NCBI GenBank assembly: GCA_963789455.1
Contig: CAWBLD010000013.1
Span: forward strand, 65,559-129,558
From: an uncultured Alphaproteobacteria bacterium
Lineage (GTDB): Bacteria; Pseudomonadota; Alphaproteobacteria; Rhizobiales; Xanthobacteraceae
Direction of reading: 5' to 3'
DNA length: 64,000 nucleotides
Each line of letters starts with the position of its first letter. Positions within the stretch are counted from its first letter, which is position 1. Made by a program: the position numbers and the translations under genes. Below, one piece after another: positions 27,041-33,338 of this stretch. Below the pieces are notes generated by a model that had not been told where the DNA came from, made no database searches, and saw only the letters and a program-made list of their open reading frames with translations.

Positions 27041-27646
27041 ATGGAAAAATTCGACCACCTGGAAGGCGTCGCCGCGCCCTTGAAGATCATCAATGTCGAC
27101 ACCGACATGGTCATCCCCAAGCAATATCTGAAGACCATCAAACGCACCGGCTTGGGCAAGGGCCTGTTCTCCGAGATGCGCTACAAGGACGACGGCAGCG
27201 AAAACCCCGACTTCGTGCTCAATAAGCCGGCCTATCGCAAGGCCAAGATCCTGGTCGCCGGCGATAATTTCGGCTGCGGCTCGAGCCGCGAGCACGCGCC
27301 CTGGGCGCTGATGGATTTCGGCATCCGCTGCGTGATCTCCACCTCGTTCGGCGACATTTTCTACAACAACTGCTTCAAGAACGGCGTGCTGCCGATCCGC
27401 GTCAGCCCGCAGGACCTGGAGAAGCTGTTCGACGACGCCGAACGCGGCGCCAACGCCACGCTCAGCATCGATCTGGAAAAACAGGAAATCCGCGGCCCCG
27501 ACGGCGGCGTGATCAAGTTCGAGATCGACGCCTTCCGCAAGCACTGCATGCTCAATGGCCTCGACGATATCGGGCTGACCAAACAGAAGCAGAACAAGAT
27601 CGTCAGCTACGAGGAGAAGGCCAAGGCGGCGCGGCCGTGGGCATAA
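27041..27646 (+). CDS. leuD: 3-isopropylmalate dehydratase small subunit
   Basis: '[13 protein letters not shown]' and '[15 protein letters not shown]'. Confidence 0.98.
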
Positions 27647-27972
27647 AGCTCGCAAGCGTCGCGGTGCTGTGCGCGCTCTGCGCCGCGCCGGCGCTGGCGC
27701 AAAAATCGACCGAAAACGGCTTGCGTGACTGCGAGAAGCTCGCCGCGGTCAAGTTCAAGCAGGAGAACCCGGCGTTCAAGAAATTCGCCATCGACCGCGC
27801 CAACGTCGAAGAAGACAAGTTCGCCGACAAGGTCGGCACGCAATTCGTCTCGACGGTTTATCACGGCAAGGCGATTCTTCAGGACACCGGTGCTCCGCAA
27901 GACGTCCGCTTCATCTGCCTGCACGGCGGGCTCGGCAAGGGCGCGGTGTTCGTCTACACGCTGCCGCGCTGA
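27637..27972 (+). CDS. Secreted hypothetical protein with two Cys
   Basis: Signal peptide ending ALA-Q and typical codon usage. Overlaps the leuD stop. Confidence 0.72.
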
Positions 27973-27986
27973 ATCAACGACGAGTT

Positions 27987-28016
27987 AAGCCCGCGCGGCG
28001 TCAACCGCGCGGGCTT
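27987..28016. terminator. Hairpin between convergent genes
   Basis: AAGCCCGCGCGG-cgtcaa-CCGCGCGGGCTT, perfect 12-bp stem. Confidence 0.65.
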
Positions 28017-28038
28017 GCGGTAGCGGTTCGACGTCCGC

Positions 28039-28754
28039 TCAGCTGTTGTCGCGGCGGAAGGCGCCGGTGTGGCGGTCGAAGATGAAACGCTCGACCAGGG
28101 AATTGTCCTTGGTGACCACATCGGCCGTGATCGAGTCGGCGTCATTCTCTTTCACTTCGCCGACTTTGAGCCGCGGATTGCCGCGCCAAGTAAGCCAGCG
28201 TTCCATGCGGGCTTTCACATCGTCGGTGGTGAGATTGAGGGTCTGGCTGTTCTGATTGCCCTGGGCGCTCTGATTGCCCTGGGCGTTCTCATTGCCCTGG
28301 ACGTTCTGATCGTTCTGAGCGTCGCCCCTGCGGTCATAGCCGGGGCCGTAGCCGCCCATCATGCCGGGACCATAACCGCCACCCCAGCCGCGCATGTGGT
28401 AGCCGCGGCCGTAACCGCCCATCATGCCGGGACCGTAGCCGCCGCGCCAACCGCGCATGTGATAGCCCGGGCCGTAGCCTGGGCCATAGCCTTGTCCCTG
28501 CCTGTCGGCGGGGCCGGACTCGTTGTTTTGCGCGAAGGCCGGGCAATTCCACTGACCGCCGCCGGGTCCGCCGCCCCAGCCGCGCATGTGGAACCGGGGC
28601 CGTAACCGCCCATCATGCCCGGGCCGTAGCCGCCGCCCATCATGCCGGGGCCGTAGCCGCCGCCATCCTGAGCGGAGGCGGTCAGGCTGTAAGCCCCGAC
28701 CCCGGCCGCGAGCGCGGCCGCAAGGCCGAGACCGATCAAGCTTCGTGCACGCAT
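28039..28754 (-). CDS. Secreted GYGPGMMG/HMRGW-repeat protein with a possible PepSY-like C-terminal domain (1-nt deletion near 28592)
   Basis: ORF 28422-28754 gives the signal peptide and first repeats; ORF 28039-28587 continues the same repeats. AGGAG SD. Confidence 0.8.
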
Positions 28755-28828
28755 TTTAGTTCTCCTGTGTGTTTAGTCGATCTGGAATTCGTTGAGGGGA
28801 GCCGCCGCGCTTCCGCGCTACCAGCCCA

Positions 28829-29127
28829 TCACCTGCGGCCGTAACCTCGGCCGTAGCCGGGGCAATATTCGCCGTCCCAGCCGCGCCTGGCGTAGCCGCG
28901 GCCGTAGCCACGCATGTGCCGATAGCCGGGGCCGTAGCCGCGCATCCGGCCATAGCCCGGCCCGCGACCATAACCGGGCCGCGGCCGTAACCCGGTCCGT
29001 AGCCATCCATCATGCGCGGGCCGTAACCCGGGCCGTCTTGGGCCGAGGCGGTCGAGCTGTAGGTCCCGACCCCGGCCGCCAGCGCGGCCGCAATACCGAG
29101 GGCGATCAAAATATTTCGTGTCGTCAT
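28829..29127 (-). CDS. Short secreted Gly/Tyr/Arg-repeat paralog (1-nt deletion near 28976)
   Basis: Signal peptide nearly identical to the neighbour. The corrected frame reads GYGRGPGYGRMRGYGPGYRHMRGY...YCPGYGRGYGRR*. Confidence 0.72.
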
Positions 29128-29218
29128 TGGCCTGCTCCTATTGCTTGCAACGGTTTCTGCCGTCGCCCACGTGCAATAGAAGCCCTGCCTGTCACTCAAG
29201 TTTGTCGGCCGCGCACGA

Positions 29219-29269
29219 TTTTGTGACCAAATGTGTCAGAGCGCCCGGCAGCGAGATTTGGTTACAAAA
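29219..29269. promoter_or_regulatory. Candidate response-regulator operator, copy 1
   Basis: TTTTGTGACCAAATGTGTCAGAG...CCGGCAG...ATTTGGTTACAAAA. Matches 31080-31127. Confidence 0.7.
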
Positions 29270-29357
29270 AAGCTTCCTCGCGATCGCGGCCCATGGGACG
29301 GCAAGCGCCGGCGGGCGGGGCCGGCCGGCGCTCGCAGTCTCGCATCCACAACGCCGG

Positions 29358-29807
29358 TCAAGGCCGCAGATAAACGTAGCCGTCGCCCTGCAATTGCGCG
29401 ATGCGCACCACACCGCCCTGATCGACCTTGACGAAGCCCGGCAACAGACCCTTCTCGTCGACCTTCTGCGCCTTCATGGTGTTGGCGCAGGCGTCGAGCG
29501 AGACCCCCTCTTCCTTGAGGTTGCCGACGGTCTTAGCCACCGCCGGCTCCGCCAGCGCCGCGTGAAAGGCCTTGAGCGCGGGCCCATGCACCACCAGCAC
29601 GATCTCCACGTATTCGGGCCCGCCGACGCCGGCGATGTGGTTCTGGATGTTGGAAAGCACGAAGGGCACCTTTTCGGCGTCGGACAGGTGGTAAACCACC
29701 TTCTGCTTGTTCTTGGGCGTGGCCGCCAAAGCTGTTCCGCCGCCGGCCGCCGCAGCGGCCAGACCCGTCATCGCCAATACCGATTTGAAAAAACTACGCC
29801 GCTCCAT
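29358..29807 (-). CDS. Tat-exported DsrE-family protein
   Basis: Twin-arginine 'ERRSFFK', 'KVVYHLS', 'VVHGPAL', 'ACANTM' and 'LQGDGYVYLRP'. Confidence 0.88.
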   Translation of the reverse strand: MERRSFFKSVLAMTGLAAAAAGGGTALAATPKNKQKVVYHLSDAEKVPFVLSNIQNHIAGVGGPEYVEIVLVVHGPALKAFHAALAEPAVAKTVGNLKEEGVSLDACANTMKAQKVDEKGLLPGFVKVDQGGVVRIAQLQGDGYVYLRP

Positions 29808-29849
29808 TGTCGATCTCCTGCATGTTCATGATGTGTGTGATCGGGCTTT

Positions 29850-30391
29850 TCAGACGCCCACTTCCGCGAAGCGGTGGATGCGCCCGTTGCGCGTCAAAGC
29901 CGACGATGCGGTAGATGCCGGGAGTTCCGTCCATGCCCGGCGCTCCATCGGGCATGCCGGGCAAGGCAATGCCTTTCAAATCGGGCCGCTCGGCCAGCAG
30001 TTTCGCGACCGCGGCTTCCGGCACGTGCCCTTCAACCAGGTAACCATCGACCTTCGCCGTGTGGCACGAGTAAAGGGCCTCCGGCACGCCAAGCTTCGCC
30101 TTGATCGGATCCGGATCGGCGACGAGATTGACGGCGACCTGGTAGCCTTTGCCGCGCATGTAATCGACCCAGCCGCCGCAGCAGCCGCAGGTGGGCGATT
30201 TCCATACCGTGATCGCGCCGGCCTTGGCCGGCTGCGGCCGATCCAAGAACGTTCCAGGCGAATACGCCACCGCTGCCGATAGCCACCGAGCCGAGCAGCA
30301 GCGCGCGCCGCGATAGGCCCGGCTTGCGGGCAGCCGTCATTCCGGCTGCCAACCGATCTTCAGCTTTTGAACGATTTGCATTCTTTGCCAT
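29850..30391 (-). CDS. Tat-exported DUF411 (CopG/CutG-like) metal-binding protein (two +1 frameshifts near 30235 and 29890)
   Basis: 'SRRALLLG' signal, 'KSPTCGCCGGW', 'SCHTA', 'EGHVP' and 'PGMP'. Confidence 0.88.
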
Positions 30392-30582
30392 TGTCTTTCC
30401 TCTTCATCGCGCCGCTGCGCCGAATGCGGCCAAGCGCCACGCGGGTTGAACCAAACTATGCGAAAGGTTTTGCTCGACTGAGCCGGTCATGGCAGCGCGG
30501 CCATGCAGCGGCGGCACGCGGATGGCGAGTGGCCATCCTGCGGCATCAAGCAGTGGCGGCGGCGTTCGACACGCCGTCGCGA

Positions 30583-30967
30583 TCACACGCGCGCGATGGG
30601 AGGGGAGAGTTCGGGCTTGGGGGTTTGCCCGTGCAAGGTGGCCTCAACGGCCACCAAATGAATCTGCGGCCAGACTTTGGCGGACCACAAAGGCGCGGCC
30701 GGCATGCGCCAGAACTTGCACCGCCGCGCAGCTTTTGACGCAATTGGCGCTATTCGCCTTGCCCGAATCGTGTTTCGGCGCGGCCGTCTCGTTGACGGCA
30801 ATCTTGGCCGTCACGTGGGCCGCGGCCGCGTGTTCCACCGCAGCGGCGTTCGTCCCGCCGCAGCCCTCCGTGGACGCCGGCAAGCTTTGCGCCCACGGGC
30901 GTCCCGCAAAGGACATCACCATGAGAGCGATCAGCAGGCATTTGAACGGTGCGGCGCACAAGCGCAT
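30583..30967 (-). CDS. CutF/DUF2946-like leader peptide, ~127 aa once rebuilt (+1 frameshift near 30706)
   Basis: Signal peptide, His-containing linker and CVKSC. The adjacent frame supplies 'LHGQTPKPELSPPIARV*'. Confidence 0.65.
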
Positions 30968-31034
30968 TCGCGCACAATCCCCCGGTCACCGGTCCGTAAC
31001 GACGGCCACGCTAGTCGTTCGGATGGGTCTGAAT

Positions 31035-31048
31035 TTGACCTGCGTCAA
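31035..31048. promoter_or_regulatory. FixK/FNR-type box
   Basis: Perfect palindrome TTGAC-CTGC-GTCAA, ~70 bp upstream of ATG 30967. Confidence 0.65.
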
Positions 31049-31079
31049 TAGCGCGGAGGCGGCTTGCCAACCGGCTCTG

Positions 31080-31127
31080 TTTTGTAACCAATTGTGTCAG
31101 AGGGTCTATCCGGCAGATATTGTTACA
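31080..31127. promoter_or_regulatory. Candidate response-regulator operator, copy 2
   Basis: TTTTGTAACCAATTGTGTCAGAG...CCGGCAG.ATATTGTTACA. Confidence 0.7.
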
Positions 31128-31170
31128 TCTTTTTTGCCAAAACCGGCCCGGCCCGAACTAGATTTAGCGT

Positions 31171-31890
31171 ATGAATGCTGGCCCGCACATCCTGATCGTC
31201 GACGACCATCGCGAGATCCGCGACCTGGTGTCGCGCGCGCTCGCCAAGGACGGCTTTCGCGTCAGCACCGCCGGTGACGGCAAGGCCATGCGCAAGGTGC
31301 TGGCCGACGCCCGCATCGATCTCATCCTGCTCGACCTGATGTTGCCGGACGAGGACGGCCTGTCGCTGTGCCGGTCGCTGCGCGCCGACAGCGACATTCC
31401 GATCATCATGCTCACGGCCAAAGGCGACGAGGTCGACCGCGTGATCGGGCTGGAAATGGGCGCCGACGATTATCTGCCCAAGCCGTTCGGCAGCCGCGAG
31501 CTCATTGCGCGCATTCGCGCCGTGCTGCGGCGTAATCGCGCGCGCGAGCCCGCGGCCAAGCAGGACAAGCCCAAGCGCTACCGGTTCGAGCGCTGGGCCT
31601 TCGACGTCGACCGCCGCGAAATCATCGGCGATGACGGCGTCGCGGTACCGTTGAGCACCGGCGAATTCGATCTGCTGCTGGCGCTGGTCGAGCATCCACA
31701 GCGCACCTTGAGCCGCGACCAGTTGCTCGATCTCGCGCGCCACCGCGCGGCCAACACCTTCGACCGCAGCATGGACACGCAAGTGAGCCGCCTGCGCAAA
31801 AAGATCGAGCGCGACCCGGGCGATCCGAAACTCATCAAGACCGTCTGGGGCGGCGGCTACATCTTCACCCCCGATGTGAGCCGGGAATGA
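31171..31890 (+). CDS. OmpR-family response regulator
   Basis: Receiver 'LLDLMLP', 'GADDYLPKPF' and wHTH 'IKTVWGGGY'. No SD, and TAGATT lies 6 nt upstream, so possibly leaderless. Confidence 0.95.
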   Translation: MNAGPHILIVDDHREIRDLVSRALAKDGFRVSTAGDGKAMRKVLADARIDLILLDLMLPDEDGLSLCRSLRADSDIPIIMLTAKGDEVDRVIGLEMGADDYLPKPFGSRELIARIRAVLRRNRAREPAAKQDKPKRYRFERWAFDVDRREIIGDDGVAVPLSTGEFDLLLALVEHPQRTLSRDQLLDLARHRAANTFDRSMDTQVSRLRKKIERDPGDPKLIKTVWGGGYIFTPDVSRE

Positions 31891-33338
31891 CCCGCTTTCT
31901 CCCCAAAAGCTTCCTGCCCAAGAGCCTGTTCGGCCAGACGCTGCTGATCCTGCTGTTCGGGCTGGTGATCTCGCATGCGATCGGCGCCTGGATCTATGCC
32001 GGCGCGCGCGAGCAGGCGGTGCGTGCGATCGGCGGCTTCGCGGCGGCCCAGCGCGTCGCCAACCTCTCGCGGCTGGTGGAGGAAGCGCCGGCCGATTGGC
32101 GCCCGCGCATCGTGGCGGCGCTGAGCGATCCCACCTTCCGCGTCGCGCTTATGGCCCAGCCGCCCGAGCAATTGCCGGCCGACGCCGACGGCGCCGCCAA
32201 GGCGATCGAGGAATACGTGCTGGAGCAGCTTCCCGAAGGGCCCGATCGCCAAGTGCGAGCCGCCGTTCTGGAGCCGACCGATCAGCCGCCCGGCGCGCTG
32301 TTCGGCGCGCCGTTCGGCCGCCGGCCGTTCCAGGGACCGATGGGCGATCCGAATAGAATGGGCATGATGATGATGCACGGCATGATGGCGCCGAATTTTG
32401 GCGCAGGGCGCGGCCTGCAGGTGGCGGTCAGGCTGAGCGACGGCCAATGGCTGTCGTTTGCCACCACGCTGCCGCAGGGCGCGCCTTCCGTGTCGTGGCA
32501 ATTCATCATCTCGATGGCGTTGATGGGTTTGATCGTGCTCGTGGTCTCGATCTGGGCGGTGCGGCGCGTCACCGCCCCGCTGGGCATGCTGTCGGCCGCC
32601 GCCGACCGTCTCGGCCGCGATGTCGGGGCCGAGCCGCTCGCCGAGGCCGGCACCATCGAAATGCAGCGCGCCGCACGCGCTTTTAATCGCATGCAGGAGC
32701 GGCTGCGCCGGATGGTCGAAAGCCGCACCCAGATGCTGGCGGCGCTGTCGCACGACCTGCGCACGCCGCTGACACTGTTGCGCCTGCGCGCGGAGGTAGT
32801 CGCCGACAGCGAGGAGCGCGACAAGATGCTGGCGACAATCGGCGAGATGGATGAGATGATCGGGACGACATTGGCTTTCGCGCGCGACGAAGTGCGCGCC
32901 GAGCCGCGCCGGCGCGTCGATATCGCCGCGCTGCTCGCCAGCATCGTGGACGACATGGCCGACGCCGGACTGCCGGTGACCATGGCGCCGGCGGCGCCGC
33001 ATATCCATGACTGCCAGCCGAATGCATTGAAGCGCGCGCTCACCAACCTGCTCGACAACGCGGTGAAATACGGCAAGCGCGCGCAAGTCGCGATCGCCAC
33101 CGCGGGCAAAGCGATCGAAATCACCATTGACGACGAGGGACCGGGAATTCCCGACGCGGAGTTGCCGAAAGTGTTCCAGCCGTTCTACCGGGTCGAGGAT
33201 TCGCGCAGCCGCGACACCGGCGGGACTGGCTTAGGCCTTGCGATCGCGCAATCCATCGTGCAGGCCCATGGCGGCGAACTCACCCTCGCCAACCGGCCGG
33301 GCGGCGGCTTGCGCGCCTCAATCAAGCTGCCGGTCTAG
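31887..33338 (+). CDS. Sensor histidine kinase (2 TM, HAMP) with a Met/His-rich periplasmic loop
   Basis: H-box SHDLRTPL, N-box NLLDNAVKY, DEGPGI and GTGLGL. Confidence 0.95.
   Translation: MTRFLPKSFLPKSLFGQTLLILLFGLVISHAIGAWIYAGAREQAVRAIGGFAAAQRVANLSRLVEEAPADWRPRIVAALSDPTFRVALMAQPPEQLPADADGAAKAIEEYVLEQLPEGPDRQVRAAVLEPTDQPPGALFGAPFGRRPFQGPMGDPNRMGMMMMHGMMAPNFGAGRGLQVAVRLSDGQWLSFATTLPQGAPSVSWQFIISMALMGLIVLVVSIWAVRRVTAPLGMLSAAADRLGRDVGAEPLAEAGTIEMQRAARAFNRMQERLRRMVESRTQMLAALSHDLRTPLTLLRLRAEVVADSEERDKMLATIGEMDEMIGTTLAFARDEVRAEPRRRVDIAALLASIVDDMADAGLPVTMAPAAPHIHDCQPNALKRALTNLLDNAVKYGKRAQVAIATAGKAIEITIDDEGPGIPDAELPKVFQPFYRVEDSRSRDTGGTGLGLAIAQSIVQAHGGELTLANRPGGGLRASIKLPV

Follow-up and report, generated by a model that had tools for sequence, protein, structure and literature searches.

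Regulator boxes in the intergenic region shared by cpxP and cpxRA give the Cpx system its autoregulation, and the CpxR box has the consensus GTAAA-N5-GTAAA; the boxes of copper-responsive regulators of the same family are palindromic. The layout of a two-component operon beside the divergent gene for a small periplasmic protein is that of cpxP-cpxRA, as cited in PMC6737893. In Escherichia coli, the OmpR motif defined by chromatin immunoprecipitation with exonuclease trimming (ChIP-exo) is a GTTACA-TTTT-GTTACA repeat, and the boxes of ompF and ompC (F1-F3 and C1-C3) consist of GTTACA-type hexamers repeated in tandem every 10 bp (PMC5438342). These boxes are multiple, adjacent and unequal, a strong distal site being accompanied by weaker neighbours. 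For PmrA, the tandem direct repeat takes the place of the −35 element (bioRxiv 10.1101/2022.07.20.500760), and copper induces the DUF411 gene copG in Vibrio parahaemolyticus (PMC12341060). The locus described here lies in a stretch of 64,000 nucleotides (the window) from an uncultured member of the Xanthobacteraceae [GenBank assembly GCA_963789455.1, contig CAWBLD010000013.1, positions 65,559 to 129,558]. It contains two copies of an element of about 48 bp, designated site 1 and site 2, next to genes for a response regulator and a sensor kinase that resemble OmpR and EnvZ, and each copy is very probably a composite operator of that two-component system. Its motif is closest to that of the OmpR boxes, and its layout to that of cpxP-cpxRA.

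The initial annotation had drawn attention to two near-identical sequences upstream of minus-strand genes, and these were confirmed. The 23-mers at 29219-29241 and 31080-31102 are identical at 21 of 23 positions, differing at position 7 (G/A) and position 13 (A/T), and site 1 is separated by 92 nt from the minus-strand start codon on its left (29127), site 2 by 113 nt from the one at 30967. The ungapped repeat covers 48 nt (29219-29266 and 31080-31127; 75% identity; repeat-finder family D12), in agreement with the length of about 50 bp first suggested, but the half-sites are spaced 10 bp from start to start and not 11 bp. Each copy is composite, with a strong box (box A) and a weaker one (box B) on the opposite strand, 13 bp apart:

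29222 to 29239, box A of site 1, half-sites TGTGAC (29222) and TGTGTC (29232) with a T-rich 5′ flank from 29219; 40.5 bits
29251 to 29266, box B of site 1, GCGAGA-N4-GTTACA on the plus strand; a reverse-strand match with 4 mismatches, 15.4 bits on the minus strand
31083 to 31100, box A of site 2, half-sites TGTAAC (31083) and TGTGTC (31093); 35.3 bits; found upstream of the regulator gene in 20 of 20 same-genus genomes examined
31112 to 31127, box B of site 2, GGCAGA-N4-GTTACA on the plus strand; ends 31 nt before the −10-like hexamer of the regulator gene

Box A is a tandem repeat, TGTRAC-N4-TGTGTC, with a T-rich flank, and reads GACACA-N4-GTYACA on the other strand; its 10-bp half-site spacing is preserved in all orthologous sites. 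Box B is built on that same unit but is weaker, and it closes in a GTTACA that is in equal register in both copies (29261-29266 and 31122-31127) and ends each of them. T- or A-rich DNA flanks both boxes. The CCGGCAG said to follow each copy together with an inverted GTTACA is indeed present twice (29245-29251 and 31110-31116), but it is shifted by 4 nt between copies and corresponds to the degenerate distal half of box B. At both sites hexamers in direct orientation are paired within the 10-11 bp expected of OmpR/PhoB operators, and the box resembles GTTACA-N4-GTTACA. At the level of sequence the element qualifies as an operator of the OmpR/PhoB family. It differs from the E. coli OmpR sites in that the boxes are convergent (A and inverted B) within a divergent region and do not form a one-way array.

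A chance origin of the repeat is excluded. With up to 3 mismatches, the 18-mer core is found twice in the window and in none of 100 shuffles, and in the 4.28-Mb source genome assembly (88% complete) it matches only sites 1 and 2 (0 for the reversed-pattern control). Likewise, the half-site pattern TGTRWC-N4-TGTRWC occurs exactly twice in the genome, at the same two sites (control 0). The scores listed above were obtained with a matrix built from relatives, the source genome being left out; site 1 is the best box A in the genome, the next match after site 2 scores 18.8 bits and the maximum for the control (reversed sequence) is 17.5 bits. No further regulon site above control level was detected in the source genome with the 18-mer (up to 3 mismatches), the relatives' matrix or the half-site-only pattern. 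The genome scan that had been recommended as a check found only the two window sites in 4.28 Mb, and the term mini-regulon is apt because only this locus carries the motif.

Site 2 directly precedes the genes for the proposed regulator and its kinase:

31171 to 31890, plus strand, response regulator of the OmpR/PhoB family (239 aa; receiver and winged helix; Pfam Response_reg and Trans_reg_C)
31887 to 33338, plus strand, sensor histidine kinase (Pfam HAMP, HisKA and HATPase), overlapping the regulator gene by 4 nt

Among NCBIfam models the regulator scores best against OmpR (288 bits; cut-off 331) and the kinase against EnvZ (208 bits; cut-off 415), though OmpR/EnvZ proper are ruled out by these equivalog thresholds. 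The CpxR model scores 173 bits. A heavy-metal pair of the CusRS/CopRS type was also ruled out, with TIGR01387 (cztR_silR_copR) at 139.6 versus 279.2 bits and TIGR01386 (cztS_silS_copS) at 135.1 versus 292.55 bits. The winged-helix domain has its closest matches among E. coli OmpR structures (E about 1e-26) and preserves the SRLR core of the recognition helix; this OmpR-like domain would be expected to read the box A/B motif. In the kinase, the region encoded by 32320-32410, before HAMP and presumably periplasmic, carries a methionine (Met)-rich run with one histidine (His), which echoes the GMMG repeats of the putative target proteins.

Regulator orthologues (74-95% identity) occur in part of the genus, and 20 same-genus loci, all with the orthologue, were collected. 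In every one of them a high-scoring box A, followed by box B, precedes the regulator ATG by about 70-93 nt. In 16 of the 20 genomes a single divergent intergenic region of about 180 nt separates the regulator gene from a gene for a secreted protein rich in glycine (Gly) and Met, and these 16 single-site regions align almost without gaps. Mean pairwise identities, computed per segment over this alignment, are as follows:

Block C, a segment near the Gly/Met gene, 0.87
−10 region of the regulator gene, 0.85
Box A, 0.84
Box B, 0.67 (adjoining spacers 0.44-0.47)
Spacers between segments, 0.40-0.48

The boxes are thus more conserved than the neighbouring non-coding DNA in the 16 genomes, as purifying selection would have it. 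Among the matches listed in the same-genus scan with the 18-mer, every match with 0-1 mismatches is in a genome that carries the orthologue, and those fetched adjoin the regulator gene with one exception, located on a 4.6-kb contig that has no regulator gene (G116 C214, locus L035). At 3 mismatches the background is about one match per genome, equal to the reversed-pattern control, and only matches with 0-2 mismatches are informative.

The A/B element also occurs in five assemblies from other genera of Rhizobiales, at the same position upstream of the orthologue and with 20-39 bits (Undibacter, Pseudorhodoplanes, Aquamicrobium, Devosia and one alphaproteobacterial metagenome-assembled genome (MAG)). 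In all, the element accompanies an orthologue of the regulator in 20 same-genus and 5 other-genus loci. For regulator homologues of 56-61% identity, from Gammaproteobacteria and one Nitrospirales MAG, boxes scoring 23-30 bits were found no more than about 250 nt upstream, and one of these distant loci (L086) combines box A with a perfect GTTACA-N4-GTTACA as box B. Because boxes sit upstream of homologues across genera and classes, the element tracks the regulator lineage in these comparisons. The proposal that both sites are targets of the adjacent OmpR-family regulator, including autoregulation, gains support from the fixed position in the 20 and 5 loci, from the conservation of the boxes above the surrounding DNA, from the OmpR-like domain and box and from the confinement of the motif to this locus in the genome, binding itself being predicted.

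These data also bear on the possibility that the element is a real operator but binds some other transcription factor, whose gene is not at this locus. One that recognises the outer inverted repeat TTTTGTRACC ... GGTTACAAAA as a dimer or tetramer would be an example. In its favour, box B of site 1 has outer 14 nt that are a near-perfect inverted copy of those of box A, and the tie between site and neighbouring regulator is drawn from sequence. However, the site accompanies the regulator gene at a fixed distance across genera and classes, the best-conserved unit is the 10-bp tandem repeat typical of OmpR/PhoB with box B often degenerate, and the motif resembles the OmpR repeat while the DNA-binding domain of the regulator is OmpR-like. 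A factor from elsewhere is improbable.

The conserved segments outside the boxes are found in the promoter regions, and the following features were defined:

29190 to 29206, minus strand, block C, in the promoter of the Gly/Met protein gene, 15 nt from box A
29134 to 29183, minus strand, two-stem leader hairpin pairing the Shine-Dalgarno sequence of the Gly/Met gene with an upstream CUCC-type stretch
31159 to 31164, plus strand, −10-like hexamer TAGATT, 6 nt before the regulator ATG, with no Shine-Dalgarno sequence

Block C, the most conserved of all segments in the 16 genomes, is not present at site 2, upstream of the 107-aa protein gene described below. It resembles box A with one extra base between the half-sites and could be either the −10/start region or a third, 11-bp-spaced regulator box. 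In single-sequence folds of 18 loci, most leaders form one shared two-stem hairpin (window z = −5.1), the arms of which vary in sequence between subgroups with complementarity kept; RNAalifold gave no consensus structure for the leader, the automatic alignment shifting two subgroups by one column. The hairpin may add a layer of translational control over the operator. If it is transcribed, the start would be near 29192 and the invariant CAAACT (29199-29204) would be the −10 element. The proximal half of box A, 17 nt upstream of this hexamer, would then occupy the −35 position, which is the arrangement of the pho box and the PmrA box. The likeness fails at the regulator's own promoter, given the distance between box B and the −10 hexamer. 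A TA.ATT hexamer is found at that −10 position in 16 of 16 aligned genomes and 6-7 nt before the regulator ATG across the 20 same-genus loci, which suggests that the regulator-kinase mRNA is leaderless or near-leaderless. The promoter of the 107-aa protein gene was sought and not located. Rfam has no match in 27500-31500, and the terminator scan gave a single terminator-like site, which lies within a gene; shuffled sequences give more.

Could the conserved blocks be mainly core promoter elements (−35, UP-like or alternative-sigma) that were copied with a promoter? On the minus strand the proximal half of box A fits a −35 element at 4 of 6 positions, at the spacing from CAAACT in block C given above, and the T- or A-rich flanks of both boxes would also fit. 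Yet site 2 is without block C and box A is equally conserved there, and neither 10-bp tandem hexamers nor a second, inverted box is a feature of core promoters. Moreover, OmpR/PhoB-type boxes often replace the −35 element, so the two roles can coincide (bioRxiv 10.1101/2022.07.20.500760). As an explanation of the element this has little probability, about the same as that of a foreign factor.

The following genes lie on the left-hand side of the two sites:

30644 to 30967, minus strand, secreted cysteine (Cys)-containing protein (107 aa; no family), the first gene left of site 2
29794 to 30391, minus strand, DUF411 (CopG-type) gene with a Tat-like signal (Pfam DUF411, E 7e-24)
29358 to 29807, minus strand, secreted DsrE-like protein (149 aa; Pfam DsrE, E 7e-7), the last gene of the three-gene insert
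28039 to 29127, minus strand, two tandem genes for secreted repeat proteins rich in Gly, Met, tyrosine and His (starts 29127 and 28754; repeats D1-D3), left of, that is downstream of, site 1

No Pfam or NCBIfam family was found for the Gly/Met-rich proteins and the 107-aa protein, the Atlas returned unnamed clusters only, and no CpxP/Spy family signal was detected in the Gly/Met-rich proteins. Orthologues of the 107-aa protein adjoin the site-2-type operator in three relatives (G005, G123 and G121), and the DsrE-like protein is 90% identical to its counterpart in G005. In the source assembly the DUF411 frame is broken near 30240-30270 and both Gly/Met repeat genes are also frame-broken; the G005 orthologues are intact (179 aa for DUF411, 112 and 215 aa for the repeat proteins). 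The breaks reflect either true pseudogenes or indel errors that the assembly made in G+C-rich repeats. A G+C-rich inverted repeat (20 bp, 3-nt loop) closely follows the DsrE-like gene, at 29297-29339; its T-run stands apart from it. G005 and G123 conserve the repeat in part, and its role may be that of a terminator or of an RNA-stabilising hairpin between the cassette and site 1.

Most relatives have a single site. In the source genome (G000), G005 and G123, a three-gene cassette (Cys protein, DUF411/CopG and DsrE-like genes) lies between the regulator gene and the Gly/Met genes, with a copy of the operator at each end. The ancestral left flank, with block C and the leader, is retained at site 1, and the right one, with the regulator promoter, at site 2; the duplication therefore covered about 48 bp. 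Each variant, that of site 1 and that of site 2, is kept in three species, whose regulators are 91-95% identical and whose adjoining non-coding DNA has diverged. The 18-mer of box A in site 1 is identical in the orthologous copies of G005 and G123, and box B of site 1 is kept in both, with the DNA beyond it divergent. This separate conservation of the two variants indicates that the duplication is old and that both copies have been maintained. By comparison of these sequences, insertion of the cassette was accompanied by duplication of one ancestral divergent control region, both copies of which have been retained. In G121 (L036 5820-5935) a deletion derivative is found, in which a truncated DUF411 gene ends beyond the core and runs directly into block C and the Gly/Met-gene leader; site 1 and the DsrE-like gene are gone.

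The initial annotation had offered remnants of a promoter duplication as an alternative; a duplication did take place, the second copy having come with the three-gene insert, but the conservation of both copies in three species does not suit mere remnants. The least probable explanation is that the duplication left one functionless copy, the likeliest candidate being site 1 or its box B. In its favour, a single site suffices in most relatives, G121 has lost site 1 and keeps just block C before its Gly/Met gene, and box B of site 1 is directed at the 3′ end of a gene. Against it, both copies including that box B are conserved in G000, G005 and G123 while adjacent non-coding DNA has diverged, and site 1 has the top box A score in the genome.

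If each element is an operator of the adjacent two-component system, a dimer of the phosphorylated regulator would occupy the strong box A first, and a second dimer would then bind the inverted and weaker box B. Site 2, between divergent promoters, would serve the regulator-kinase operon (autoregulation) on one side and the leftward genes for the Cys protein, DUF411/CopG and the DsrE-like protein on the other, while site 1 would drive the two genes for Gly/Met-rich secreted proteins. Activation seems more likely than repression because the −35 elements are poor. The signal may be periplasmic copper or oxidant stress, to which DUF411/CopG, copper-induced elsewhere, would point together with the Met-rich stretch of the kinase and the Met-rich target proteins. 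An assignment of boxes to promoters by their orientation was rejected as unsafe, the box being OmpR-like on one strand and pho-box-like on the other. The binding orientation of OmpR itself is debated.

Several points weigh against an operator of the adjacent system. The unassembled part of the genome could hold more sites. The regulator and the kinase score below the NCBI OmpR and EnvZ equivalog cut-offs, and it is therefore by inference that the specificity of OmpR is transferred to them. A simple sigma-70 scan found no promoter, which makes any placement relative to −35 and −10 a guess. The geometry also appears to differ among the three promoters since, from the putative −10 hexamers, box A may overlap the −35 element of the Gly/Met gene, and at the regulator gene the centre of box B would fall near −52. 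Finally, box B of site 1 faces no gene.

The multiple adjacent unequal sites and GTTACA-type tandem hexamers with a 10-bp period are shared with the OmpR boxes of ompF and ompC. In contrast to E. coli OmpR, the predicted targets are secreted Met/Gly-rich and copper-linked proteins and not porins, and the regulon is confined to a single locus. The arrangement of an OmpR-family system beside genes for secreted Met/His-rich proteins and CopG/DUF411 is shared with CusR, CopR and PcoR and their pcoE/silE-type proteins, but the box here is unlike the palindromic copper box. With cpxP-cpxRA the locus shares the two-component operon beside a divergent gene for a small secreted protein, and several distant regulator homologues also have Met-rich small secreted proteins as divergent neighbours. 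However, the box is not of the CpxR type, and the CpxR model scores well below that of OmpR.

The divergent neighbours of distant homologues were judged by eye from the listed N-termini, automatic scoring of G+M content having failed on spurious high-GC open reading frames. Small secreted Met/Gly/His-rich proteins were seen upstream of homologues in Gamma- and Betaproteobacteria (L058, L086, L102, L049, L081, L074, L052 and L054), and in L107, L101 and L109 the neighbours are Met-rich and helical-looking. A Met/Gly-rich secreted protein is the divergent neighbour in at least two of the distant-homologue loci. Neighbours of this kind hint at a broad module of a two-component system with a periplasmic partner, the Cpx-like layout of which occurs in both Rhizobiales and some Gammaproteobacteria. 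A literature search for such a module found no report. Tentatively, and with the balance somewhat against it, the locus may represent an uncharacterised, widely distributed Cpx-like envelope-stress module, consisting of an OmpR/EnvZ-like pair with a Met-rich kinase, a divergent Gly/Met protein and convergent A/B boxes, through which autoregulation is linked to output. Such a module would sense periplasmic Cu(I) or oxidant damage via methionine chemistry and would recruit cargo (CopG/DUF411 and DsrE-like proteins) by operator duplication.

An autoregulated OmpR-family operator is of a textbook kind, and the prediction is well supported yet concerns an ordinary bacterial switch; its value lies in annotation and in access to a Met-rich sensor/effector system, and not in a new principle. 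For a two-component system of soil Rhizobiales that is so far unstudied, it provides a precise cis-element and the whole of the predicted regulon, which comprises two operators and about seven genes. The growth of a regulon is also documented, as duplication of a 48-bp operator would have placed a three-gene cassette under the control of the system, and one relative later lost the second copy.

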